The position numbers were made by a program, and so were the translations under genes. The notes beneath the pieces were generated by a model. The model saw only the letters and a list, made by a program, of their open reading frames with translations, had not been told where the DNA came from and ran no database searches. From sequence record MK373771.1: 45,130 nt of DNA, one strand, 5' to 3'. The DNA is from Escherichia phage vB_EcoP_R4596. Below are positions 6,096-30,820 of the stretch, in pieces. Positions within the stretch are counted from its first letter, which is position 1. The number at the start of each line of letters is the position of its first letter.

Positions 6096-6111
6096 GTCTC
6101 ACATGTGAGAC
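6096..6111. repeat. 16-bp perfect palindrome GTCTCACATGTGAGAC (copy a)
   Basis: Read directly; immediately 5' of the promoter at 6113. Confidence 0.9.
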
Positions 6112-6278: not shown

Positions 6279-6294
6279 GTCTCACATGTGAGAC
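6279..6294. repeat. 16-bp perfect palindrome GTCTCACATGTGAGAC (copy b)
   Basis: Read directly; immediately 5' of the promoter-like sequence at 6299. Confidence 0.9.
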
Positions 6295-6479: not shown

Positions 6480-8468
6480 ATGGCTATTATTCAGAATGTA
6501 CCGTGTCCTGCCTGTCAAAAGAATGGACATGATATTACTGGCAACCATCTTATGATATTTGAGGATGGCGCTGGTTACTGTAATCGTGGTCACTTCCATG
6601 ATAACGGTAAGCCTTACTATCATAAGCCAGAGGGCGGCATCGAGATAACCGAATTGCCCATTACTGGCAATATCAAATACACACCTTCTCAATTCAAAGA
6701 AATGGAGAAGGAAGGGAAGATAAGCGACCCTAAGCTACGCGCCATCGCACTAGGTGGTATGCGTATGAAAGACCGTTGGGAGGTCATGAATGAGCAAGAA
6801 AGGGCAGAGCAAGAAGCAGAGTGGAAACTTGATGTTGAATGGTTCCTCACGCTTAAGCGTAAGAATCTTGTTTCCCGACACATTCGCGGCGACATTTGCG
6901 CATTGTATGATGTACGTGTCGGACATGATGAAGAGGGTAGAGTCTCACGGCATTACTATCCACGCTTCGAGAAAGGTGAACTAGTAGGCGCTAAGTGTCG
7001 CACATTACCTAAAGACTTTAAGTTTGGTCATTTAGGTAAACTATTTGGTATGCAAGATCTTTTCGGTATGAACACTTTGTCTCACGTGTTAGACAAGGGG
7101 AGACGAAAGGATTGCTTGCTTATTGTAGGCGGTGAACTTGATGCACTAGCAGCGCAGCAGATGCTCCTTGATTCTGCCAAAGGTACTAAGTGGGAAGGTC
7201 AGCCATACCATGTATGGTCTGTCAATAAAGGTGAGTCTTGCCTTGAAGAGATAGTGCAAAACCGTGAGCACATATCCCAATTCAAGAAGATTATATGGGG
7301 CTTTGATGGCGACGAGGTGGGGCAGAAGCAGAACCAACAAGCTGCTCGCCTGTTTCCTGGCAAATCCTACATCCTCGAATATCCATCTGGTTGCAAAGAT
7401 GCTAACAAGGCATTGATGGCTGGCAAGGCTAAAGAGTTTGTAGATGCATGGTTTAATGCCAAGTCATCTGATGAAGTCTTTGGTAGCCAGATTAAATCTA
7501 TCGCATCTCAAAGGGATAAGCTCAAGGCTGCACGTCCAGAACAAGGGCTGTCATGGCCTTGGCCTAAGCTAAACAAGGTAACGCTGGGTATCCGTAAGAA
7601 TCAGCTTATCATTGTAGGCGCAGGCTCTGGTGTGGGTAAGACTGAGTTCCTCCGTGAAGTAGTTAAGCATCTCATTGAAGAACACGGTGAATCTGTAGGC
7701 ATCATTTCTACAGAAGACCCGATGGTTAAGGTGTCCCGTGCTTTTATCGGTAAGTGGATTGATAAGCGTATTGAGCTACCGCCAACCAATGACCCGAAAG
7801 AAGATGGATACCGTGAGGTGTTCGACTATACCGAGGAAGAGGCTAACGCTGCCATTGACTATGTAGCTGATACAGGGAAGCTGTTTGTGGCTGACCTAGA
7901 GGGTGACTATTCAATGGAGAAGGTAGAGCAGACCTGCCTTGAGTTTGAGGCTATGGGTATTTCCAATATCATCATTGATAACTTAACGGGGATTAAATTA
8001 GATGAGCGTGCTTTTGGTGGGAAGGTTGGTGCACTTGATGAATGCGTCAAGCGGATTGGTACTATCAAAGACCGACACCCAGTTACTATATTCCTTGTAT
8101 CACACCTTACACGTCCTCCGGCAAACCGTACCCAACACGAAGAAGGTGGCGAAGTTATCCTTTCTGACTTCCGAGGCTCAGGAGCTATCGGATTCTGGGC
8201 ATCTTACGCCTTGGGCATCGAAAGGAACACGAGGGCAGAGACACTAGATGAGCGAACTACTACCTATATTTCCTGTGTTAAAGATAGGGATCAAGGGATT
8301 TACTCTGGTACTAAGATTATGCTTAAGGGTGACATCGCTACGGGCCGACTGCTAGAACCACAAGCCCGTACTAAGTCATTTGATACAGGTGAAGCAAGGC
8401 AACAAGAAGTACCTGATTTACCGGACACTATAGAAGAGACAACCTTTGACGATGAACAGGAGTTTTAA
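6480..8468 (+). CDS. DNA primase/helicase (T7 gp4-like, 662 aa)
   Basis: N-terminal Cys4 zinc motif CPACQ...CNRGH, Walker A GAGSGVGKTE, acidic C-terminal tail ending DDEQEF. Confidence 0.93.
   Translation: MAIIQNVPCPACQKNGHDITGNHLMIFEDGAGYCNRGHFHDNGKPYYHKPEGGIEITELPITGNIKYTPSQFKEMEKEGKISDPKLRAIALGGMRMKDRWEVMNEQERAEQEAEWKLDVEWFLTLKRKNLVSRHIRGDICALYDVRVGHDEEGRVSRHYYPRFEKGELVGAKCRTLPKDFKFGHLGKLFGMQDLFGMNTLSHVLDKGRRKDCLLIVGGELDALAAQQMLLDSAKGTKWEGQPYHVWSVNKGESCLEEIVQNREHISQFKKIIWGFDGDEVGQKQNQQAARLFPGKSYILEYPSGCKDANKALMAGKAKEFVDAWFNAKSSDEVFGSQIKSIASQRDKLKAARPEQGLSWPWPKLNKVTLGIRKNQLIIVGAGSGVGKTEFLREVVKHLIEEHGESVGIISTEDPMVKVSRAFIGKWIDKRIELPPTNDPKEDGYREVFDYTEEEANAAIDYVADTGKLFVADLEGDYSMEKVEQTCLEFEAMGISNIIIDNLTGIKLDERAFGGKVGALDECVKRIGTIKDRHPVTIFLVSHLTRPPANRTQHEEGGEVILSDFRGSGAIGFWASYALGIERNTRAETLDERTTTYISCVKDRDQGIYSGTKIMLKGDIATGRLLEPQARTKSFDTGEARQQEVPDLPDTIEETTFDDEQEF
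8415..8438 (+). promoter_or_regulatory. Phage-RNAP promoter inside the 3' end of the primase/helicase gene
   Basis: GATTTACCGGACACTATAGAAGAG. Confidence 0.65.
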
Positions 8469-8646: not shown

Positions 8647-8662
8647 GTCTCACATGTGAGAC
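8647..8662. repeat. 16-bp perfect palindrome GTCTCACATGTGAGAC (copy c)
   Basis: Read directly; flanks extend the potential stem to about 12 bp. Confidence 0.9.
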
Positions 8663-9857: not shown

Positions 9858-9873
9858 GTCTCACGTGTGAGAC
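9858..9873. repeat. Palindrome variant GTCTCACGTGTGAGAC (copy d, 15/16)
   Basis: One substitution in the central tetranucleotide; flanks AAGGG...CCTTT can extend the stem. Confidence 0.85.
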
Positions 9874-9998
9874 AGCCTTTCATCATATTGATTGGAGGTG
9901 CATTATGCCACGTGATTATGATTCTGATTGGGACTACTATGACTCAATGAATCCAAAACCCGAACGTTCAGATGATTACTACGAAACAGAGGCAATGT

Positions 9999-12545
9999 AT
10001 GAAAACTATTGATTGGAAGAAGGAAGCAGAAGGGCGCATCCTAGTGATGGATGCTGAAAGTAAAGGTCTGCTTGATGCTATCCGCTACGGTCATCGTGAA
10101 GATGTACACATCATTTGCTGCATGGACTTGCTCACCACTGAGGAGTTCCTCTTCTTCGACCCATATGAGATGCGTGATCCTGAAGCGAGGGAGCGCCTGA
10201 AAGAATGGGAAGGCCATCAAGATGGAACCTTGGTTGATGGTGTTAATTTCCTGAAGCATTGTGAAGCTATTGTGTCGCAGAACTTCCTAGGATATGACGG
10301 TCTTCTCTTTGAGAAAGCGTTCCCTGATATCTGGAAAGGCTTTAATTATACCGAGAAGCGCGGCAAGGGCAGACTCCGTGCCGACCTGTGTCCTGTGCGA
10401 GTCATGGACACGCTGGTGATGAGCCGCCTGTTAAACCCCGATAGACGCCTTCCTCCGCAAGCATATGCCAAAGGTATGGGTAACGTCGCCCCTCATTCAA
10501 TTGAGGCGCACGGCATCCGTATAGGACGCTATAAGCCGGAGAATGAGGACTGGTCTAAACTAACTGACCACATGGTTCACCGTGTCCGCGAGGACGTGGC
10601 AATCGGTCGTGACCTTTTCCTGTGGCTGTACAATGGAGAGTGGACGGAGCATAAACGCCGTGGCGTGAATAAACGCACTGGCCTAGGCATTGAGACAGCC
10701 TTCCACATGGAGTCTATTGTGGCGCTGGAGATGAGCCGTCAGGCAGAGCGTGGATTCCGTCTGGATATTGACAAAGCACTAGCGCGATGCGAAGAACTGG
10801 ACGCTAAGATTGATGAGACAGTCGCAGCGTTCCGCCCTCACATGCCTATGCGTATCAAGTCTAAACCTTTTAAACCGGAAGAAAAGAATGAAGTATGCCA
10901 ACGCGCAAATGAGTATGGAGCTAGCAACAATATACCTACTGTCCTTGACCCCTCACACTTTCTTCATGCCGAGAGACGAGGAGATCGCAAGACAGTATGG
11001 AGTGTCACTACTAAGTCTGGTGATTGGTCGGCTAGCGTCAAGAAAGACTTTCCTCACCTTAGAGGAAACCGTAATGACACGCCAAGCATCAAGTGGATTG
11101 GCGCTTACTCGCCTGTTACTTTCGAAGAGATTCCCTTGGGTAACAGGGATACAGTTAAGCAAGTGCTCTATGATTATGGATGGAAAGGTGTTGAATTTAA
11201 CGATACCGAGCAAGCGCATCTCGATGAGCATGGCGTATTACCCAAACCTTGGAGTGGAAAGATAAATGAGAAATCCCTTACTTTATGGCAAGAAAGAGCC
11301 GCACGTGAAGGTAAAACAGTACCAGATTGGTGCTTGGGTATCGCTGCATGGTACATACTCGTATCCCGTCGTGGTCAGATCCTCAACCGTGGTGACGTTG
11401 AAGCCTTCGATCAGAAGGGGGCGTGGCCTTCGCAAGCTGGTGTACGAAAGTGTCGCGGCCTTATACCTGTAGCCTTTAACAAGGAATTAGGAATCAATGC
11501 GCAACAATACTACGAGAGGTATGGGTATTGGCCTACGTCTGACAAGGATGACGGAGAGTGGCGTGTGCCAGCTATTGCTATTAGTATTGGCACTTCTACG
11601 TTCCGTATGCGTCATCGCAATGTGGTTAATATTCCTGCCCGTGGCTTGTATCCTTTACGTGATTTATTCATAGCAGGTAAAGGTAAGCTAATCCTTGGTT
11701 GTGATGGTGCAGGTCTTGAACTACGTGTACTTTCTCACTTCATGAATGACCCTGAGTACCAAGATATTGTACTGCATGGCGATATACATACTCATAACCA
11801 GATGAAGGCGGGTCTTCCTAAGCGTGATATGGCGAAGACATTTATATATGCCTTCCTTTACGGCTCTGGTATAGCTAACCTTGCAGCAGTGTGCGGTGTT
11901 ACTGAGGAAGAAATGAAGGAAGTTGTGGCAAGATTCGAGATTGAATTACCATCCCTTGCACGTCTTCGTGAGAATGTTATCGCACAAGGCAACAAGTTTG
12001 GATACTTACAAGCACCTGACGGGCATTGGGGTCGCATCCGTATGTCTGGTGGAGAACTTAAAGAGCACACTATGCTTAATGTATTACTCCAAATGACTGG
12101 CTCTTTGTGTATGAAATACGCATTGGTCAAAGCGTTTGCAGTGATGCGCAAGGAAGGTGTGGCCTTAGATAGTATGGGACACCCTTGTGGTGTAGCTAAC
12201 GTGCACGATGAAATCCAGATGGAAGTACCTGAAGAAGAGGTATTGTATCTTAACTACGACCTACCTTTCACCTTAGAGGGGTTTGAAACAGAGAAGGCTG
12301 CTGTGAAAGCAGTATTCGATGCAGAGGAGAAACGTGTTCATGTGGATTCTGAAGGACGTATGTGGTCTGCTGCAAATCTCATTAGTGTTGATGCTGCTGC
12401 TGGTGTACTTCATTGCCAGCGTCGTTATCACCGCGCAGGGCATATCATTGCCGACGCCATGACTTGGGCTGGTCAGTATCTGAAGATGCGTTGCCCGATG
12501 GCAGGCGAGTATAAGATTGGCGCAAGCTGGAAGGAAACGCACTAG
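9999..12545 (+). CDS. DNA polymerase, family A with 3'-5' exonuclease domain (T7 gp5-like)
   Basis: Exo motif ILVMDAESKGL, motif B KTFIYAFLYGSG, motif C VANVHDEIQMEV; likely start ATG 9999 with GAGG ribosome-binding site (track begins at 9972). Confidence 0.93.
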   Translation: MKTIDWKKEAEGRILVMDAESKGLLDAIRYGHREDVHIICCMDLLTTEEFLFFDPYEMRDPEARERLKEWEGHQDGTLVDGVNFLKHCEAIVSQNFLGYDGLLFEKAFPDIWKGFNYTEKRGKGRLRADLCPVRVMDTLVMSRLLNPDRRLPPQAYAKGMGNVAPHSIEAHGIRIGRYKPENEDWSKLTDHMVHRVREDVAIGRDLFLWLYNGEWTEHKRRGVNKRTGLGIETAFHMESIVALEMSRQAERGFRLDIDKALARCEELDAKIDETVAAFRPHMPMRIKSKPFKPEEKNEVCQRANEYGASNNIPTVLDPSHFLHAERRGDRKTVWSVTTKSGDWSASVKKDFPHLRGNRNDTPSIKWIGAYSPVTFEEIPLGNRDTVKQVLYDYGWKGVEFNDTEQAHLDEHGVLPKPWSGKINEKSLTLWQERAAREGKTVPDWCLGIAAWYILVSRRGQILNRGDVEAFDQKGAWPSQAGVRKCRGLIPVAFNKELGINAQQYYERYGYWPTSDKDDGEWRVPAIAISIGTSTFRMRHRNVVNIPARGLYPLRDLFIAGKGKLILGCDGAGLELRVLSHFMNDPEYQDIVLHGDIHTHNQMKAGLPKRDMAKTFIYAFLYGSGIANLAAVCGVTEEEMKEVVARFEIELPSLARLRENVIAQGNKFGYLQAPDGHWGRIRMSGGELKEHTMLNVLLQMTGSLCMKYALVKAFAVMRKEGVALDSMGHPCGVANVHDEIQMEVPEEEVLYLNYDLPFTLEGFETEKAAVKAVFDAEEKRVHVDSEGRMWSAANLISVDAAAGVLHCQRRYHRAGHIIADAMTWAGQYLKMRCPMAGEYKIGASWKETH

Positions 12546-12729: not shown

Positions 12730-12752
12730 ATTTACTGGACACTATAGAAGGA
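12730..12752 (+). promoter_or_regulatory. Phage-RNAP promoter
   Basis: ATTTACTGGACACTATAGAAGG. Confidence 0.75.
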
Positions 12753-12816: not shown

Positions 12817-13194
12817 ATGTCTATGGTAACTACTCTGGTATTCGTAGCTCAATACTTTCGTGGCCTGGCTAATAAGTTTAAACAGAAAGCAATCTTTGCA
12901 ATTCAAGAACGTATTAATAAAATTGAAGAAGAACAAGTAGATGTAGAGGAACATCGTAGTTCTCAGATGATTGACCTGCATAATCGTCTGTACAAAGATC
13001 GTGATGAGATGCGTCACCGTCATGCGAAGGAAGTTGAAGACATGCTTAACCGCCATGCGGAAGAACAAGCTAAGTTGGAAACCACCTTCCATGAGGATAA
13101 ACGTAGCATCGCTCTAGCACATCAAGCTGCATCGGATATCCTGAAGAGAGAGATTGTTATGCTGGAGATTGAGTTAGACAATCTTACCAAATAA
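12817..13194 (+). CDS. Hypothetical protein with hydrophobic N-terminus and charged coiled-coil region (125 aa)
   Basis: GGAGA ribosome-binding site; no family recognized. Confidence 0.55.
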   Translation: MSMVTTLVFVAQYFRGLANKFKQKAIFAIQERINKIEEEQVDVEEHRSSQMIDLHNRLYKDRDEMRHRHAKEVEDMLNRHAEEQAKLETTFHEDKRSIALAHQAASDILKREIVMLEIELDNLTK

Positions 13195-13356: not shown

Positions 13357-14163
13357 ATGGCACGTGGTGATTTTGATTTTGGTGCTCAGGTTACTAAAGC
13401 TGAAGGTAAAGTATTTAAGAACCCTGAAGTTGGTGATCATGAAGCAGTAATCTCTGGCATCATTCATGTTGGTTCCTTCCAAGATATTTTTAAGAAAGGT
13501 AATACCACTGAGGTTAAGAAGCCAGCAAACTTTGTTCTAGTTAAGATTATCCTGATGGGTGACGATGACAAGAATGAAGATGATTCTCGCATGGAACAGT
13601 GGATGGCTGTACCGCTGAAGTCTGGTGACAAGGCAACCTTGACTAAGTTCTTGAATGCAGTTGACCCCAAAGAATTGCTTGGTGGCTTCGATGACTTCAT
13701 CGGTGAATGCCTGACTGCAACCATGGTTGGTTCTGGTGATAAGAATGACGATGGCTCATTCAAGTATGTTAACTGGAAGGGTTTTGGTGGTATGCCGGAC
13801 AAGCTGAAGAAACTTGTCATTGCTCAGGTTGAAGAGGAAGGTCTGTCTATGACAGGTCATATTACCTTTGACAAGCTGACCAAAGAAATCCTTGATGACA
13901 TTCCTGCTAACTTGGTACGCCAATACTTCCTGAATGAAACCCCTCGTGGTAAGAACCTGTCTGTTGCTGGTTCTCACGTAGAAGAAATCATTAAAGCTGC
14001 TCGTGAAGAAGATCCTGAGTGGAAGAAGGCTAAGAAGAAAGATGACGAGGATGCTACTCCAGCTAATCGTAAGTCTCTGGACACTGGCGAGTCTGTTCCA
14101 CAGGAAGTGCCGGAGGCAGAGGACACTCCTGCACCGGAAATGGATGAAGACGCGGAATACTAA
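13357..14163 (+). CDS. Putative ssDNA-binding protein (gp2.5-like role inferred, 268 aa)
   Basis: Position in the replication module and acidic C-terminal tail ...PEMDEDAEY ending in an aromatic residue, as in the T7 gp2.5 and gp4 tails; no direct sequence match recalled. Confidence 0.35.
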   Translation: MARGDFDFGAQVTKAEGKVFKNPEVGDHEAVISGIIHVGSFQDIFKKGNTTEVKKPANFVLVKIILMGDDDKNEDDSRMEQWMAVPLKSGDKATLTKFLNAVDPKELLGGFDDFIGECLTATMVGSGDKNDDGSFKYVNWKGFGGMPDKLKKLVIAQVEEEGLSMTGHITFDKLTKEILDDIPANLVRQYFLNETPRGKNLSVAGSHVEEIIKAAREEDPEWKKAKKKDDEDATPANRKSLDTGESVPQEVPEAEDTPAPEMDEDAEY

Positions 14164-14392: not shown

Positions 14393-14408
14393 GTCTCACA
14401 TGTGAGAC
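14393..14408. repeat. 16-bp perfect palindrome GTCTCACATGTGAGAC (copy e)
   Basis: Read directly; 2 nt after the stop of the 14170-14391 gene and 14 nt before the promoter. Confidence 0.9.
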
Positions 14409-14422
14409 AAATCGGTGTCCAG

Positions 14423-14446
14423 TATTTACTGGACACTATAGAAGAG
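14423..14446 (+). promoter_or_regulatory. Phage-RNAP promoter
   Basis: GTATTTACTGGACACTATAGAAGAG; its upstream half lies in a 9-bp inverted repeat GTGTCCAGT / ACTGGACAC (14415-14436). Confidence 0.75.
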
Positions 14447-14495
14447 AAGAATTTTAATCGGCGATAATGCCATAACTAACAAAGGAGAATTTAAT

Positions 14496-14864
14496 ATGTT
14501 CAAGATTGAAACTATCGTAAACCGTGTTGTTAAAGGTGCTGCTCTGGTGTCCGTTGAATCTTTCATTATCGTCGATGAAGCTGATCAACTGGTAGCTGGC
14601 ACTAAGGCTTACGATACCCGTGAAGAAGCTCAGGCTAAGATTGACAGCATGGGTAACTTTGCTGCTGGTCTGGAGTTCGCTCGTGCTTGCTTCCCTGAGC
14701 AGGCTGACAAAGCACAGATTGGTAAGGCTAATATCGTAGCTGAATATCTGGATTGGGTTGCTGCTGGTAAACCAGTGAAAGAAGCTAAGGCTGAAGAAGC
14801 TGAAGCTCCTGCAGTAGAAGAAACCAAAGCAGAAGAAGCTCTGTCTGCTGAAGAAGAATTTTAA
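14496..14864 (+). CDS. Small acidic protein of unknown function (122 aa), boxed by its own promoter and terminator
   Basis: AAAGGAGA ribosome-binding site; C-terminal tail ...EAKAEEAEAPAVEETKAEEALSAEEEF ending in Phe. Confidence 0.65.
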   Translation: MFKIETIVNRVVKGAALVSVESFIIVDEADQLVAGTKAYDTREEAQAKIDSMGNFAAGLEFARACFPEQADKAQIGKANIVAEYLDWVAAGKPVKEAKAEEAEAPAVEETKAEEALSAEEEF

Positions 14865-14870
14865 TTGATG

Positions 14871-14905
14871 CCCTGTCTGCCTTAGTGTAGGCAGGGTCTT
14901 TTGTG
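14871..14905 (+). terminator. Tphi-like stem-loop terminator
   Basis: CCCTGTCTG-CCTTAGTG-TAGGCAGGG then TCTTTTGTG; covaries with the capsid terminator at 23931. Confidence 0.7.
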
Positions 14906-14928
14906 TAATAGTTATTGGAGAATGAATT

Positions 14929-15222
14929 ATGCCGACTATTGAAGAACGTTTCCTGATTCACGTAGACTTCTCACCCATACATCTTGGTTATCTTATCACT
15001 ATTCTCTTAGGAGAGGAGGTTTATCTACATAATTACCTTATACCTGAATATGTATGTTTTAGGGATAAGATACACCCGCTTACTTGGGCACAAGAGTGGC
15101 TGCGTGAACATGTGCTGAAGGAGTGGCCTACATGCGACCAAACTTCGACTTCGGAGCTACAGTATCGGAAGACAATAATCTCATCCTGTGGCCGACTGAA
15201 GGTGAGAGAATCGCTCTCATAG
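14929..15222 (+). CDS. Hypothetical protein (97 aa)
   Basis: GGAGA ribosome-binding site just after the terminator; overlaps the exonuclease start by about 90 nt in another frame. Confidence 0.35.
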   Translation: MPTIEERFLIHVDFSPIHLGYLITILLGEEVYLHNYLIPEYVCFRDKIHPLTWAQEWLREHVLKEWPTCDQTSTSELQYRKTIISSCGRLKVRESLS

Positions 15223-16160
15223 ATGCTGACATGTTACCTTATATCGTAGGGTACACAATCAGTGACATGACTTATGTACGAGCCACAACTCGTGTTAAGT
15301 CAGGACAAGTCCAATCAATCAAAGATACACCTGAGTGTAAGCAAGCATGTGACCGTGTGAACTCCTTGCTTAACTCTTGGGTGTATGCAGCAGAGTGTGA
15401 TGCAGCTAAGCTATTCATGACAAAATCAGAAGCTAACTTCCGTGTTCGCCTAGCATTCACCAAGCCTTATAAGGGTCAACGTAAGACCGAGAAGCCTCCA
15501 TTCTTCTATGAATTACGAGAGCATCTCTTAGAGGTGCATGGTGCAATCTTGGCTGATGGTGAGGAAGCAGATGACCTAATGAGCATCGCACAATGGGACA
15601 GCCATCGCCGCTTCCAGCAAGATACAGGTAACGAGTTCCCTATCGGTAGTCCAGAGCATAAAGCATTCTCTGATACTTGCATCGTTTCCTTAGATAAGGA
15701 TTTGATGATTGTTCCCGGTTGGCATCTACTGCCGGGAGGTGAGAAGAAATGGGTAGAGCCTATGGGTTGGCTTGAGCTACGCCGCAAGGCTAATGGTCAA
15801 GTGAAAGACCTTAAAGGTGCTGGCCTCATGTTCCATTATGCACAGATGATTATCGGTGATGACATAGATAATTATGCTGGCATACCTGGGCGTGGAGCTA
15901 AATATGCCTATGATCTTCTCAAAGATTGCAAGACAGAGAAAGAGTTGTACATGGCAGTGCTTGGTGCTTACAAGGCTAAGTTCGGACATGGACAAGTTAA
16001 GATTAAGAATTACCGAGGTGGTTATCGTATCGGCAAGGCTTTTGATCTCATGCTTGAATGTGGTCGCCTAGCTCACATGGCGAGATTCAAAGGTGATATC
16101 TGGAGGGCTGATAAGAATGAAATCTTATGGGGAGAAGGTGATGGATGGCTAGTAAACTAA
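15132..16160 (+). CDS. 5'-3' exonuclease (T7 gp6-like, FEN family)
   Basis: GDDIDNYAGIPGRG and AHMARFKGD match T7 gp6 GDITDGYSGIAGWG and ARILRFNEY as recalled; GAAGGAG Shine-Dalgarno 8 nt before ATG 15132 (track begins at GTG 15123). Confidence 0.8.
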   Translation: MRPNFDFGATVSEDNNLILWPTEGERIALIDADMLPYIVGYTISDMTYVRATTRVKSGQVQSIKDTPECKQACDRVNSLLNSWVYAAECDAAKLFMTKSEANFRVRLAFTKPYKGQRKTEKPPFFYELREHLLEVHGAILADGEEADDLMSIAQWDSHRRFQQDTGNEFPIGSPEHKAFSDTCIVSLDKDLMIVPGWHLLPGGEKKWVEPMGWLELRRKANGQVKDLKGAGLMFHYAQMIIGDDIDNYAGIPGRGAKYAYDLLKDCKTEKELYMAVLGAYKAKFGHGQVKIKNYRGGYRIGKAFDLMLECGRLAHMARFKGDIWRADKNEILWGEGDGWLVN

Positions 16161-16555
16161 AATCTTCAGAGGTGGCAGCTTATAAGAAAGAGCTTATGGA
16201 GAAGCAAGGTTGGAAGTGTCCTCTGTGCGGAGGCAGCCTTAAGGCAGTAAGTCCTATCAACCGTGTACTTGACCATGATCATGAGACAGGTTTCTGTCGT
16301 GCTGTTGTGTGTCGTGGCTGCAACGGTGCAGAAGGAAAGATTAAGGGTGTTATATCTGGCTACGGAAAGGCAGGTAATAACCGCTACTTCCAACTACAAT
16401 GGTTAGAACGCCTGTATAACTACTGGAAGTTGCATAGTACACCTCAGACAGATAAGTTATATCATAATCATAAAACGGAGGCAGAGAAACGAGAGGCTAA
16501 AAATCGTAAGGCTCGCCTTGCTTATGCAAGAAAGAAGGAGGTTAAGAGTGGCTAA
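16145..16555 (+). CDS. Endonuclease VII-like Holliday-junction resolvase (T4 gp49 family)
   Basis: CPLCGG...LDHDHETGFCRAVVCRGCNGAEGKIKG...LQWLERLYNYW matches the T4 endonuclease VII zinc/HNH-like core as recalled. Confidence 0.8.
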   Translation: MASKLKSSEVAAYKKELMEKQGWKCPLCGGSLKAVSPINRVLDHDHETGFCRAVVCRGCNGAEGKIKGVISGYGKAGNNRYFQLQWLERLYNYWKLHSTPQTDKLYHNHKTEAEKREAKNRKARLAYARKKEVKSG

Positions 16556-17555
16556 ACTTCGTAGCCTTTATAAAGACTCCGAGGTGCTTGATGCAATCGA
16601 GCAAGCTACCGACGAGAAAGGTAATGTTAACTATAATGAGATGGCGAAGGTTCTATCTAGCCACCCTGTGGGTAAGAAGATCACCCGTCAACTTGCTCGC
16701 TACTGGCATGGTCAATTCAAGAAGACCAAGAAGAATGGTGATTATTACCAGACTCTTCTGCAAGAGGATAAGCGTATCAAAGAAGAGCGTAAGCTCAGGA
16801 CTCCTGACCGCTACGAGGATTTGGCTATTGTACCATTGCCTGACTCGCCTCATCGAAGTGTACTGGTAATCCCTGATACTCATGCACCTTATGAGCACCC
16901 AGATACCTTAGAGTTCCTTGCAGCAGTGGCAGCACGTTATCGACCAGACACAGTGGTACATCTTGGAGATGAGGCAGATAAACATGCCCTGTCATTCCAT
17001 GATTCGGATCCAAATTTGGACAGTGCTGGCATGGAGTTAGAGAAGGCTCGTGTCTTCATGCACAAGTTGCACAAGATGTTCCCTGTGATGCGCCTGTGTC
17101 ATTCTAACCATGGCTCTATGCACTTCCGTAAGGCAAGCGCCAAGGGTATTCCAGTACAATATCTGCGTACCTACCGTGAAGTCTTCTTCCCGCAGGGAGG
17201 TGGCGACCAGTGGGACTGGCAGCATACGCATGTACTTGAGTTACCGAATGGCGAACAGGTGGCGTTCAAGCATCAACCTGCCGGCTCTGTCCTAGCAGAT
17301 GCAGCGCATGAGCGTATGAACCTTGTGTGTGGTCATCTGCATGGCAAGATGTCTGTGGAGTATGCACGTAATACCCATGAGCAGTATTGGGCTGTGCAGG
17401 GTGGCTGTCTAATTGATGAGTCATCTCGTGCATTTGCCTATGGTCGAGAGTCTAAGTACAAGCCAGCATTAGGTTGTGTGGTTATTCTGGATGGTGTGCC
17501 GCACATTGTCCCGATGCAGACCAATAGTGACAATCGCTGGATTGGTAAGATTTAG
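16548..17555 (+). CDS. Calcineurin-like metallophosphoesterase with about 100-aa N-terminal extension
   Basis: Motifs VIPDTHAP, HLGDEADK, HSNHG, CGHLHG; likely GTG 16548 start with AAGGAGG Shine-Dalgarno 7 nt upstream (track begins at 16518). Confidence 0.75.
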   Translation: MAKLRSLYKDSEVLDAIEQATDEKGNVNYNEMAKVLSSHPVGKKITRQLARYWHGQFKKTKKNGDYYQTLLQEDKRIKEERKLRTPDRYEDLAIVPLPDSPHRSVLVIPDTHAPYEHPDTLEFLAAVAARYRPDTVVHLGDEADKHALSFHDSDPNLDSAGMELEKARVFMHKLHKMFPVMRLCHSNHGSMHFRKASAKGIPVQYLRTYREVFFPQGGGDQWDWQHTHVLELPNGEQVAFKHQPAGSVLADAAHERMNLVCGHLHGKMSVEYARNTHEQYWAVQGGCLIDESSRAFAYGRESKYKPALGCVVILDGVPHIVPMQTNSDNRWIGKI

Positions 17556-17572
17556 TTGACACTATAGAACAA
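17550..17572 (+). promoter_or_regulatory. Phage-RNAP promoter, closest copy to the SP6 consensus
   Basis: ATTTAGTTGACACTATAGAACAAAGG. Confidence 0.7.
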
Positions 17573-17622: not shown

Positions 17623-18060
17623 ATGTCACACTATGAATGTAATAAATGCCATAATCGCTATGATGATTGCACTTGTGATGCGCATAAAGATGAGAGTATT
17701 AAGCCAGAGCATCACCCTTTATGTGATTACATGTTGTCTAACTGTGTAGAGAAATGTGACTGTAAAACAGAGTGGTTTAAAGAAAGAATGGCTAAAATGG
17801 ATAAGAAGGAAGAAAAAACCAGTAATGATATGGTCACTAAACCCAAGCACTACGAGTTCTTCGATGGCGTAGAGGCAATTACTATCATCGCCCGTAGTAT
17901 GACCGAGAAGCAATTCGCGGGGTATTGCATGGGTAATGCTTTGAAGTATCGTCTGCGTGCAGGTAAGAAGTTCAATACTGAAGAAGACCTGAAGAAAGCA
18001 GACTACTACAAAGAGTTATTCCAGAAGCATCGTCACGAATGTATTGATGAGGATATTTGA
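17623..18060 (+). CDS. Cys/His-rich protein with DUF3310-like C-terminal domain
   Basis: N-terminus CNKCHNRYDDCTCDAH...CDYMLSNCVEKCDCK; C-terminal KPKHYEFFDGVEAITIIARSM...GNALKYRLRAGKK...DLKKADYY resembles DUF3310 as recalled; GGAGGA ribosome-binding site before ATG 17623. Confidence 0.5.
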   Translation: MSHYECNKCHNRYDDCTCDAHKDESIKPEHHPLCDYMLSNCVEKCDCKTEWFKERMAKMDKKEEKTSNDMVTKPKHYEFFDGVEAITIIARSMTEKQFAGYCMGNALKYRLRAGKKFNTEEDLKKADYYKELFQKHRHECIDEDI

Positions 18061-18061
18061 T

Positions 18062-19009
18062 ATGAATATCTTTGAGTTCCTAGGTCTTCCAGAAGACCAC
18101 CGCAACCACCCATTCATGCTGGTGAAGCATCGCGGTGAAGTTCCTGAGAAGAAATTAACTTTTCCATGTTATGCACAGGTGAAACGAGATGGAATATTCA
18201 GTGCTGTTGTGGTGCGCAATGATGGTGCTGTTGCCGTCTTTGGTCGTACTGGTAAGAAGCTCGCAAATGTTGAAGCCTTGGAAAAGACATTTAGTGTATT
18301 TCCTGTCGGGTTGTATCTTGGTGAGTTGCAATCTATGGCTGTTGGTGTTTATCTTGAAGCTCTGTCAGGAGTGGTAAACCCTAATCGTACAGAGCCACTT
18401 GACTTCATAGGCCAGCAGATTAAAGACAACCTGTATATCGACTTCTTCGATATGTTAACTATTAAGGCATTCCATGATGGATTCACTGATGTTTCTTATC
18501 TCAAACGTTACGATGCTTTACATCGTCGTATCGGCACTCATCTTAGCGGGTGCAACGCTATCCTTCCTATCACTCCTTGCCATAATGAGCGAGAAGTTGA
18601 AGCGTTTGCGCAAGAGCAAATAGATGCAGGACGTGAGGGTGCTGTATTCAAACTGGACTGCGATTATGAAGCAGGACACAAAGGTTATCGTCAGACTAAA
18701 GAAGTCCGTAAGGTAACTTATGACCTTACTTGTATTGGCTTTGAAGAAGGTAAAGGTAAATACAAAGGTAAGGTAGCTAACCTCATTTTCAAGTGGAAAG
18801 GGGGCAAGACAATCAAAGCTATGCTCGGTAAAGGGTGGACTCATGCAGATGCAGAACAGATGTTCCACGATATTAAACATGGCGGACGGTTGAATGTCAT
18901 TGGTAAAATCTTTGAAGTCAAAGGTCTTCAGGATTCAAGCAAGGGCAACATTCGTCTGCCCAAAGCGGGAGAATTAAGACATGACAAAGATGAACCAGAT
19001 TTCTTTTGA
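18062..19009 (+). CDS. ATP-dependent DNA ligase
   Basis: Adenylation motif AQVKRDGIF (KxDG) near the N-terminus; GAGGA ribosome-binding site; ATG 18062 (track begins at TTG 18044). Confidence 0.85.
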   Translation: MNIFEFLGLPEDHRNHPFMLVKHRGEVPEKKLTFPCYAQVKRDGIFSAVVVRNDGAVAVFGRTGKKLANVEALEKTFSVFPVGLYLGELQSMAVGVYLEALSGVVNPNRTEPLDFIGQQIKDNLYIDFFDMLTIKAFHDGFTDVSYLKRYDALHRRIGTHLSGCNAILPITPCHNEREVEAFAQEQIDAGREGAVFKLDCDYEAGHKGYRQTKEVRKVTYDLTCIGFEEGKGKYKGKVANLIFKWKGGKTIKAMLGKGWTHADAEQMFHDIKHGGRLNVIGKIFEVKGLQDSSKGNIRLPKAGELRHDKDEPDFF

Positions 19010-19196
19010 TAGCATGAAGGCAACTCGTGCAGTTGAGGTAGCAGAAGCTATCTTTGAAACTTTACCCTGCGGCATGGAAGTGCCATATACTTTACTTGCT
19101 GATGCAGAAGAACTTGGTCTTTCTGTAGAAGCTATCCAAGAGAAGGTTGACGAATTATATGGTACAGACGAAGAAGAAACCGACGATTTCATTTGA
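18981..19196 (+). CDS. Small acidic protein (71 aa)
   Basis: GGGAGA ribosome-binding site; overlaps the ligase 3' end; acidic tail ...DEEETDDFI. Confidence 0.45.
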   Translation: MTKMNQISFDSMKATRAVEVAEAIFETLPCGMEVPYTLLADAEELGLSVEAIQEKVDELYGTDEEETDDFI

Positions 19197-19325
19197 AGGA
19201 ATGGAGATGCTTGAGATGATTCTCAAGCCTTCTTCTCCGAAGGTGACTAAGACTCATGAAGAGTTAATCGTAGATGAAGTGAAGCGTTACATTATGGATT
19301 GTGTCAAGGCACAACTGGTAGTCCA

Positions 19326-22640: not shown

Positions 22641-22663
22641 ATTTACTGGACACTATAGAAGGG
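22641..22663 (+). promoter_or_regulatory. Phage-RNAP promoter upstream of the capsid gene
   Basis: ATTTACTGGACACTATAGAAGGGAGA followed by 5' hairpin GGGAGA-AAAC-TCTCCC. Confidence 0.8.
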
Positions 22664-22712: not shown

Positions 22713-23921
22713 ATGTCTACACCGAACACTCTGACTAACGTTGCTGTGTCCGCATCTGGTGAGGTTGACAGCCTTCTTATTGAGAAGTTTAATGGTAAGG
22801 TAAACGAGCAGTACCTGAAAGGTGAGAACATTCTGTCCTACTTTGATGTACAGACGGTAACTGGTACTAACACGGTTAGCAATAAATATTTAGGTGAAAC
22901 TGAGTTGCAGGTGTTAGCACCGGGTCAGTCACCTAATGCTACTCCAACTCAGGCCGATAAAAACCAGTTGGTAATTGATACCACTGTGATCGCCCGTAAC
23001 ACCGTGGCACACATCCACGACGTACAGGGTGACATCGACAGCCTTAAGCCTAAGTTGGCTATGAACCAAGCCAAGCAACTGAAGCGTCTGGAAGACCAGA
23101 TGGCAATCCAGCAGATGCTGTTAGGTGGCATCGCTAACACCAAAGCAAAGCGTAACAAACCTCGTGTAAAAGGACACGGCTTCTCTATCAACGTTAACGT
23201 GACTGAAAGTGAAGCACTGGCTAACCCGCAGTATGTCATGGCTGCTGTAGAATATGCTCTGGAGCAGCAGCTTGAACAGGAAGTGGATATCTCTGATGTA
23301 GCGATCCTGATGCCGTGGAAATTCTTCAACTCGCTGCGTGACGCAGACCGCATTGTAGATAAGACTTACACTATTAGTCAGTCCGGTGCTACTATCAGTG
23401 GCTTTGTTCTGTCTTCCTACAACTGCCCTGTTATCCCGTCTAACCGATTCCCGACATTTGTACAGAGTGCTCCACATCACTTACTGTCTAACGAAGATAA
23501 CGGTTATCGTTATGACCCTACCGCAGAGATGAACGGCGCTGTAGCTGTGCTGTTTACTGCTGATGCATTGCTGGTAGGTCGCACCATTGAAGTAACAGGT
23601 GACATCTTCTATGAGAAGAAAGAGAAGACTTACTATATTGATACCTTCATGGCTGAAGGTGCAATCCCTGATCGTTGGGAAGCTGTGTCTGTAGTTACCA
23701 CTAAACGCAACGGAACATCTGGTGATGCTGAAGGTACAGGCGCTGACCACGCAACCGTACTGGCTCGTGCACAACGTAAGGCTGTCTATGTCAAGACCGC
23801 AGGCGCTGCGGCTGCATTCTCTGCTGCACCAGTAGGTATCCAAGCAGAAGACCTAGTAGCAGCTGTACGTGCTGTAATGGCAAATGACATCAAGCCGACT
23901 GCACTTAAACCTGCTGAGTAA
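22713..23921 (+). CDS. Major capsid protein (402 aa)
   Basis: Position after scaffold, own strong promoter and terminator, AAGGAG ribosome-binding site; no direct sequence match recalled. Confidence 0.8.
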   Translation: MSTPNTLTNVAVSASGEVDSLLIEKFNGKVNEQYLKGENILSYFDVQTVTGTNTVSNKYLGETELQVLAPGQSPNATPTQADKNQLVIDTTVIARNTVAHIHDVQGDIDSLKPKLAMNQAKQLKRLEDQMAIQQMLLGGIANTKAKRNKPRVKGHGFSINVNVTESEALANPQYVMAAVEYALEQQLEQEVDISDVAILMPWKFFNSLRDADRIVDKTYTISQSGATISGFVLSSYNCPVIPSNRFPTFVQSAPHHLLSNEDNGYRYDPTAEMNGAVAVLFTADALLVGRTIEVTGDIFYEKKEKTYYIDTFMAEGAIPDRWEAVSVVTTKRNGTSGDAEGTGADHATVLARAQRKAVYVKTAGAAAAFSAAPVGIQAEDLVAAVRAVMANDIKPTALKPAE

Positions 23922-23930
23922 TAACCTATG

Positions 23931-23966
23931 CCCTATCTACCTTGCGTAGGTAGGGTTCTTTTGTTT
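23931..23966 (+). terminator. Tphi-like terminator after the capsid gene
   Basis: CCCTATCTA-CCTTGCG-TAGGTAGGG then TTCTTTTGTTT. Confidence 0.75.
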
Positions 23967-30804: not shown

Positions 30805-30820
30805 GTCTCACATGTGAGAC
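30805..30820. repeat. 16-bp perfect palindrome GTCTCACATGTGAGAC (copy f)
   Basis: Read directly; between two internal virion protein genes; flanks AAGG...CCTT and a following TTTATGAAT shared with the hairpin at 12648. Confidence 0.9.

Follow-up and report, generated by a model that had tools for sequence, protein, structure and literature searches.

The middle region of the genome of Escherichia phage vB_EcoP_R4596 contains a short gene that stands between a promoter and a terminator of its own, and whose product ends in an acidic tail with a terminal Phe. This arrangement raises the questions of why a protein of 122 aa should be enclosed in this way, how much of it is likely to be made, and which partner its tail may serve. 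The analysis covered the whole stretch of 45,130 nucleotides (MK373771.1), which is called the window below. Two adjacent genes are needed from the start:

13357..14163, + strand: 268-aa neighbour (K1-5 gp16 family, PHROG 862), OB-fold, SSB-like, ending in DEDAEY, with its own promoter at 13193
14496..14864, + strand: the 122-aa ORF, with ATG start and TAA stop, exactly as in the original prediction

Identity and family of the 122-aa gene product

Positions 14400 to 14920 match Escherichia phages vB_EcoP-CC1 and CC2 with 100% identity, and many Vectrevirus genomes with 92-99% identity. The source genome is a Vectrevirus (K1-5/K1E/SP6-like; Autographiviridae, Molineuxvirinae). The counterparts of the ORF are gene 18 of K1-5 (gp18) and 'SP6_20' of SP6 (gp20), and the gene and its product are called gp18-like hereafter. 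The sole family match of the ORF is PHROG 4429 (E 6.6e-55), a family with no function assigned, and its homologues are annotated as hypothetical protein in every annotated record checked. No Pfam match was found, a PADLOC scan returned nothing meaningful, and the best hit of a profile search against PDB sequences had an E value of only 0.33. Homology to a structural protein, which the original prediction had named as evidence against itself, was looked for in Pfam, PHROGs, PDB and BFVD, and none was found. Likewise, the literature searches yielded no functional study, transcriptome or virion proteome mentioning the gp18-like protein.

A tblastn search located the gp18-like gene in 212 phage records. 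The sampled hosts of these phages belong to Escherichia, Salmonella, Klebsiella, Proteus, Erwinia, Pectobacterium, Pseudomonas, Vibrio, Marinomonas and Aeromonas, all of which are Gammaproteobacteria. The gene encoding the SSB-like neighbour was found in 215 records, with the same breakdown by genus. Gene order is kept in the 11 relatives that were examined closely, running from the DNA polymerase gene through that of the ~260-aa protein and the gp18-like gene to the exonuclease gene, and the gp18-like gene sits in the DNA-metabolism block. In the window, the DNA polymerase is encoded at 9972-12545 and the exonuclease at 15123-16160. The K1-5 gp18 / SP6 gp20 family is a core middle-region (DNA-metabolism) gene family of the SP6-like supergroup of Autographiviridae.

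Beyond these phages the family has no visible extension. An exhaustive phmmer search with the core of the protein against 1.84 billion representatives gave just 24 matches, all of them phage proteins, ~108-127 aa long apart from one of 149 aa, and a core-only profile search that gathered 230 clusters showed neither domain fusions nor new genomic contexts. By these searches, the gp18-like family is a closed, phage-only one. An RNA element in place of a coding gene was also considered and discarded, as the gp18 region had no family match in Rfam and the pattern of synonymous changes is that of selection at the protein level.

The promoter-terminator unit and its expected output

The following features surround the gene, the last one being located after the capsid gene:

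14393..14408, + strand: palindromic hairpin GTCTCACATGTGAGAC, directly upstream of the promoter, conserved
14414..14437, + strand: 10-bp inverted repeat, whose 3' arm is the promoter specificity region
14424..14446, + strand: phage (SP6/K1-5-type) RNA polymerase promoter ATTTACTGGACACTATAGAAGAG, a consensus match
14441..14495, + strand: predicted 5' UTR of 55 nt, unstructured (fold -4.3 kcal/mol, z 0.03)
14870..14903, + strand: predicted Tphi-type intrinsic terminator, with an 11-bp hairpin (14870-14897) followed by CTTTTG
23930..23962, + strand: twin terminator, with a hairpin (23930-23956) and a T-run (-16.4 kcal/mol, z -3.9)

A consensus promoter had been proposed upstream of the ORF, and ATTTACTGGACACTATAGAAGAG indeed belongs to a set of nine full-length phage promoters in the window, none being expected by chance. 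It differs from the eight other full-length sites at 1-3 of 23 positions, and from the capsid promoter at 22641 by a single mismatch, at +5. By analogy with SP6-type promoters, transcription would start at G14441 (+1). A Shine-Dalgarno sequence, AAGGAG, is present at 14482-14487, 8 nt upstream of the ATG. Among the 11 relatives, a promoter-like motif was recognized by eye 5' of the gene in most cases, and the AS51 record itself annotates a promoter for the gp18-like gene.

Two repeats are found around the promoter. The hairpin GTCTCACATGTGAGAC occurs in six copies in the window (none expected by chance), and copies are also present in the genomes of Vibrio phage AS51 and Erwinia phage phiEa1H. 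Together with the next hairpin, it has a joint fold of -22.9 kcal/mol (z -5.5), and read-through RNA may be processed at this site. The inverted repeat at 14414-14437 is unique in its extent among the 13 promoter cores of the window; analogous inverted repeats overlap the promoter of the gp18-like gene in PM93, AS51 and S16c.

On the 3' side, the terminator hairpin (-18.3 kcal/mol, z -4.4) begins six bases past the stop codon. Its twin stands 3' of the gene encoding the 402-aa major capsid protein (22713-23921). The covariation that had been claimed between the two stems is real, consisting of one fully compensatory pair (G-C to A-T) and one change from G.U to A-U. A strong hairpin with a T-run lies within ~60 nt 3' of the gp18-like gene in 11 out of 11 relatives, and the PM93 record annotates a terminator after this gene. 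Whole genomes of phages of Escherichia, Proteus, Erwinia, Pseudomonas, Vibrio and Marinomonas were compared. Strong hairpin/T-run sites on the + strand number merely 3-7 per genome, and in five of these six genomes a strict scan places such terminators 3' of both the gp18-like and the capsid genes. The exception is Pseudomonas phage MR4; there the hairpin on the gp18 side contains mismatches, did not pass the strict scan and was visible in the locus comparison only. In each of the six genomes, the gp18-side terminator resembles the capsid terminator of its own genome, the closest case being Marinomonas phage CPP1m, with a one-base difference. When the 12 terminators were submitted to RNAalifold, 11 pairs were obtained, 7 of them with compensatory double changes, and the CCC/GGG at the base of the stem was invariant. 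The enclosure of the gene between promoter and terminator can thus be taken as genuine, and its terminator is kept across phage subfamilies. Since terminators following genes without assigned function had already been noted in UAB_Phi78 and SP6 (PMC4837284), the mere presence of a terminator at this place is not new.

The original prediction also held that the protein is probably one of the most abundantly made of the phage. Codon bias, used as a proxy for abundance, strongly suggests very high expression. With the E. coli codon adaptation index (Sharp-Li values), the ORF at 14496-14864 scores 0.670 and ranks first of 44 genes, compared with 0.508 for the 268-aa protein, 0.491 for the capsid gene and a median of 0.298. 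When the capsid gene of each genome served as the reference, the gp18-like gene ranked 1, 2, 1, 1, 1 and 1 in the six genomes. By the same measure the homologue of the 268-aa protein usually came second or third, the gp18-like gene standing above the SSB-like gene.

The gene would be transcribed as its own monocistronic mRNA of ~460 nt, from the consensus phage promoter to the Tphi-type terminator, and read-through from the promoters at 12730 and 13193 would cover it as well. An unstructured leader, a strong ribosome-binding site and the codon usage could together bring the protein yield among the highest of the infection. Promoter, leader, Shine-Dalgarno sequence and terminator agree with the codon bias, which supports very high expression. 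As judged from these sequence features, the gp18-like gene looks like the most strongly expressed gene of SP6/K1-5-like phages.

Core, tail and possible partners

The protein consists of two parts, and a third feature, located in the primase/helicase gene, is needed for comparison:

14496..14786, + strand: coding region of the core (residues 1-97), a beta-hairpin and three helices in the AlphaFold2 model
14787..14864, + strand: coding region of the acidic tail (residues 98-122), a variable Glu/Ala/Pro linker and the tip S-A-E-E-E-F, followed by TAA
8403..8468, + strand: coding region of the C-terminal tail of the primase/helicase (ORF 6480-8468), ending in ...TTFDDEQEF

AlphaFold2, run on a 28-sequence alignment, predicted a folded domain of ~95 aa with a core pLDDT of ~88, containing strands at residues 3-13 and 16-26 and helices at 42-51, 53-65 and 71-89. 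Structure and sequence comparisons of this core gave no OB-fold or helicase match, and the modelled core has no convincing relative in fold or sequence. Membership of DUF1508/YegP (PF07411; UPF0339), a lead that came from weak partial structural matches and one database label, was rejected, as 0 of 21 diverse family members reached the Pfam model even at E values up to 5. The likeness spans half of the core only and, DUF1508 being without known function, membership would bring no mechanism. Codon changes in the core are predominantly synonymous, with synonymous to non-synonymous ratios of 8:1 against VEc3 and 5:1 against K1-5.

From residue 98 on, the model is disordered (pLDDT <50). The acidic tail with terminal Phe described in the original prediction is present, the ORF ending in AEEEF, and an aromatic end is a feature of 96% of the family. 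Among 171 distinct members, 165 have F or Y at the C-terminus and 6 have no aromatic residue there; the ending is EEEF in 133, and 166 have E two residues before the end. The family consensus for the tip is S/T-E-E-E-F. The linker drifts in sequence and carries indels, and the tip stays the same. In terms of sequence evolution, the core is thus under purifying selection, the linker is variable and the tip is fixed. The whole protein is small and acidic, with a net charge of -12. The family-median net charge of the last 25 residues is -9 and, by residue count, that of the core is about -3 to -4, so that the bulk of the negative charge lies in the disordered tail.

Similar tails had been pointed out on the primase/helicase (DDEQEF) and on the 268-aa protein (DEDAEY), and both are present as claimed. 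An acidic C-terminus combined with a terminal aromatic residue is restricted to 3 of 45 gene products, namely these two and the gp18-like protein. In the six-genome comparison, E-F is the ending of every helicase-primase and E-F or E-Y that of every ~260-aa SSB-like protein; the gp18-like protein ends in [E/D/T/A]-F, and the DNA ligase in D-F or D-Y in five genomes. The 268-aa neighbour is an OB-fold, ssDNA-binder-like protein; its family has no sequence homology to T7 gp2.5, the OB fold notwithstanding.

The T7 proteins that carry such tails end in ...EDGDF (gp2.5) and ...NDTDF (gp4). The gp2.5 tail contacts the DNA polymerase and the helicase, and its C-terminal Phe is critical for function (PMC12339929; PMC4124056); its anchor on the T7 polymerase is the 'front basic patch' (PMC12339929). 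Basic loops of the thioredoxin-binding domain are, along with this patch, the places where the T7 polymerase receives such a tail. In SP6-like polymerases, the segment of this patch is an alignment gap and no equivalent is present, and a large Lys/Arg-rich insertion is found at the position of the thioredoxin-binding loop. The front basic patch was therefore rejected as the docking site, and the acceptor site cannot be transferred from T7 by homology.

The reading that we favour, tentatively and with a little less than even confidence, is that the gp18-like protein is a third tail-bearing protein, which docks on the replication hub and would there compete, regulate or serve as an adaptor. Its tip would be a peptide for docking, like those on the phage helicase-primase and the OB-fold SSB-like protein and like the tips of T7 gp4, T7 gp2.5 and bacterial SSB. 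The acceptor site or sites on the phage replication/recombination machinery would then be the ones that these phage tails use, with the DNA polymerase, a different enzyme served by the SSB tail and the ssDNA cleft of the SSB itself as candidates. A common acceptor is suggested by the conserved tip that helicase, SSB-like protein and gp18-like protein have in common, and docking is also consistent with the layout of variable linker and fixed tip, the place among replication genes and the co-distribution with the SSB-like gene. The extreme inferred abundance points to a stoichiometric role rather than that of a 1:1 polymerase subunit. In large excess, the protein could be a stoichiometric competitor, regulator or adaptor of SSB and helicase tail traffic or, alternatively, a partner of the abundant SSB-like protein. 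What counts against this reading is that a replisome subunit does not need the top expression in the genome, that SP6-like polymerases are missing the front basic patch of T7, that 6 of 171 members have a non-aromatic end, and that codon bias is a proxy for abundance.

The main rival is a host-directed decoy or inhibitor, in which an abundant protein titrates an abundant host factor through its SSB-like tail or its core. The factor could be one of the host SSB partners (Exo I, RecQ, PriA, chi, others), a nucleoid protein or the host RNA polymerase, and the effect would be that host DNA transactions are shut down or phage DNA is protected. Very high inferred expression suits a stoichiometric titrant, and the tail is shaped like an SSB tip in having an acidic run and a terminal Phe. 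Moreover, all sampled hosts are Gammaproteobacteria, whose SSB tips are near-identical, and T7 encodes abundant small host-takeover proteins in the same genome region, gp5.5 acting on H-NS and gp5.9 on RecBCD according to the T7 record. However, the tip of host SSB is D-D-D-I-P-F, and E-E-E-F matches instead the E-F or E-Y tips of the phage helicase and SSB-like protein. The absence of similarity to T7 gp5.5 or gp5.3, the position among replication genes and the co-distribution with the SSB-like gene also speak against a decoy, which we consider rather unlikely. More improbable is a DNA or ssDNA mimic working in the manner of Ocr, gp5.9 or Arn, which would block host nucleases or restriction/defence systems. 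The protein is small, acidic (net charge -12) and probably abundant, and the acidic RecBCD inhibitor gp5.9 of T7 is encoded in the equivalent interval between DNA polymerase and exonuclease. Nevertheless, this option of the original prediction loses ground because the negative charge is mostly borne by the disordered tail and not by the folded core, the promoter and locus belong to the middle and not the early region, and the phage already possesses a bona fide Ocr in its early region (1601-1975; PF08684, E 4e-43). Neither a match of the 122-aa protein to the ocr family (PF08684) nor a DNA-like charge display on its folded core was found, PADLOC and Pfam gave no match, and the strictly conserved terminal Phe indicates peptide docking instead.

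The unit might also be mainly transcriptional, its terminator being an attenuator by which the replication genes before it are kept in a set ratio to the nuclease genes behind it, with the ORF encoding an ordinary accessory protein whose abundance is incidental. No phage promoter core exists between 14424 and 17558, and the genes for a 97-aa ORF, the exonuclease, the endonuclease VII and the phosphoesterase consequently rely on read-through of the terminator; the literature on UAB_Phi78 and SP6 cited above fits this as well. Attenuation does not, however, require the top codon adaptation that the enclosed gene has in five of six genomes, and it leaves unexplained the strong Shine-Dalgarno sequence, the unstructured leader, the purifying selection on the core and the tip kept in 96% of members. 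This explanation is very improbable in our view.

Returning to tail docking, one form that it could take is a free-standing 'tail module', that is, a highly abundant carrier that does not bind DNA and that buffers or gates the acceptor sites of SSB and helicase tails, whether on phage polymerase and nucleases or in the host SSB interactome. We regard this proposal as speculative and on the unlikely side. If true, the protein would be a global stoichiometric regulator or hijacker of tail-mediated traffic, and no prior description of a phage-encoded SSB-tip competitor was found in the literature searched.

These possibilities matter beyond a single genome. SP6, K1-5 and K1E are classic model phages and relevant to therapy, and the gene that appears to be their top-expressed one, ahead of the capsid gene in codon adaptation, carries no functional assignment in the records and family libraries searched. 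The Phe-tipped acidic tail ties gp18 to the best-understood protein-protein code in the replication of phages and bacteria, that of SSB and helicase tails. Should the protein turn out to compete for tail-binding sites or to serve them as an adaptor, the organisation of replisomes would gain a new level of control, and a host-targeted protein would represent a new phage route to exploit the SSB interactome. In addition, the unit of promoter, leader and terminator would offer SP6/K1-5-type RNA polymerases a small expression cassette of high output, optimised by nature, to the extent that its expression is as high as its sequence suggests.

Comparison with known systems

Taken one by one, the elements of the locus are of known kinds, be it the promoter for the phage polymerase, the terminator of Tphi type or the acidic tail with its terminal Phe. 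In the sources searched, no description was found of a locus uniting all of the following: the top rank in inferred expression, a private promoter-terminator box kept across subfamilies, a terminator that is the twin of the one behind the capsid gene, and a tail of the replisome type carried by a protein other than an SSB or a helicase. With the tails of T7 gp2.5 and gp4, the gp18-like protein has in common a disordered acidic C-terminal segment ending in Phe. In T7 the carrier is an SSB or a helicase, whereas here it is a domain of ~95 aa that is neither.

Bacterial SSB offers a second parallel. In its tail, which serves as the SSB interaction hub, a low-complexity linker of variable sequence leads to a short acidic tip that is highly conserved and has Phe as its last residue, and the tail of gp18 is laid out in the same way. 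Compared with the bacterial tip DDDIPF, the gp18 tip S/T-E-E-E-F retains the acidic run and the Phe but lacks Ile-Pro, and the gp18 core, unlike that of SSB, is not an OB fold.

By position, the gene resembles those of T7 gp5.5 and gp5.9, small proteins whose genes likewise lie between those of DNA polymerase and exonuclease, and T7 gp5.5 is very abundant. No T7 counterpart was found by sequence among the positional analogues gp5.5 and gp5.3; gp5.5 (DUF2675) and gp5.3 were rejected as homologues, with hhalign probabilities of 0.13 and 0.29, respectively. Unlike gp18, the genes of gp5.5 and gp5.9 have no private promoter-terminator box, and their products have no acidic Phe-tipped tail.

In its transcriptional design, the locus is closest to the T7 unit formed by a class III promoter, gene 10 and Tphi. 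In both cases, a phage promoter, a strong Shine-Dalgarno sequence and a hairpin/U-run terminator bracket a gene with very high inferred expression. The T7 unit encloses the capsid gene, whereas the unit described here, with its predicted terminator, encloses a 122-aa non-structural gene in the DNA-metabolism region.

Repeats and transcription signals around the gp18-like gene

The gp18-like gene encodes a 122-aa protein and is preceded by a phage promoter at 14424-14446. A 10-bp inverted repeat (GGTGTCCAGT/ACTGGACACT) was found at 14414-14437, its 3' arm being the specificity region of this promoter. None of the window's 12 other promoter cores has a repeat of this extent, and similar repeats overlap the promoter of the gp18 homolog in the related phages PM93, AS51 and S16c. 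The scan of the window found no phage promoter core between 14424 and 17558. The genes for a 97-aa ORF, an exonuclease, an endonuclease VII and a phosphoesterase (14905-17557) therefore appear to rely on read-through past the gp18 terminator, the hairpin and T-run downstream of the gp18-like gene. Additional promoter-like cores (GACACTATAG) are located at 2090, 9311, 17558 and 29633.

The window also contains six copies of a 16-nt palindrome, GTCTCAC(A/G)TGTGAGAC, against none expected by chance:

6096-6111, palindrome copy
6279-6294, palindrome copy
8647-8662, palindrome copy
9858-9873, palindrome copy
14393-14408, palindrome copy
30805-30820, palindrome copy

The copies checked are intergenic, and two of them lie directly upstream of phage promoters. 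The GTCTCAC..GTGAGAC hairpin occurs nine times in Vibrio phage AS51 and four times in Erwinia phage phiEa1H. The palindrome may serve as a site of RNA processing (RNase III-like) or of protein binding.

Other small or acidic proteins

The DNA ligase, encoded by a ligase-size ORF at 18044-19009, ends in ...DKDEPDFF, and in five of the six diverged genomes the homologous protein has D-F or D-Y at its C-terminus. Because of these termini, the ligase may be a fourth carrier of the putative docking tip, the acidic, aromatic-ended C-terminus of the gp18-like protein, the helicase-primase and the 268-aa SSB-like protein. Two further ORFs were noted:

18981-19196, very acidic 71-aa ORF (net charge -14; PHROG 5860)
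12817-13194, 125-aa ORF with a promoter of its own (12730) and a codon adaptation of 0.42, which is fairly high

The 71-aa product ends in ...EEETDDFI; its capsid-referenced codon adaptation is the third highest in the genome, and a hairpin (19209-19228) lies 3' of the ORF. The 125-aa ORF matches PHROG 7450, labelled 'polysaccharide chain length determinant protein', a label that looks doubtful since the product is small, charged and encoded in the replication block.

In the early region, 1601-1975 encodes a 124-aa protein (net charge -23) that matches PF08684 (E 4e-43) and a PHROG annotated 'ocr-like anti-restriction'. This protein is a genuine DNA mimic of the Ocr type; its C-terminus consists of seven consecutive glutamates.

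Comparison with the T7 DNA polymerase

T7 polymerase possesses both the segment forming the front basic patch, which anchors the gp2.5 tail, and a thioredoxin-binding loop. SP6-like polymerases, including that encoded at 9972-12545, lack the former segment, and a large Lys/Arg-rich insertion occupies the position of the loop.
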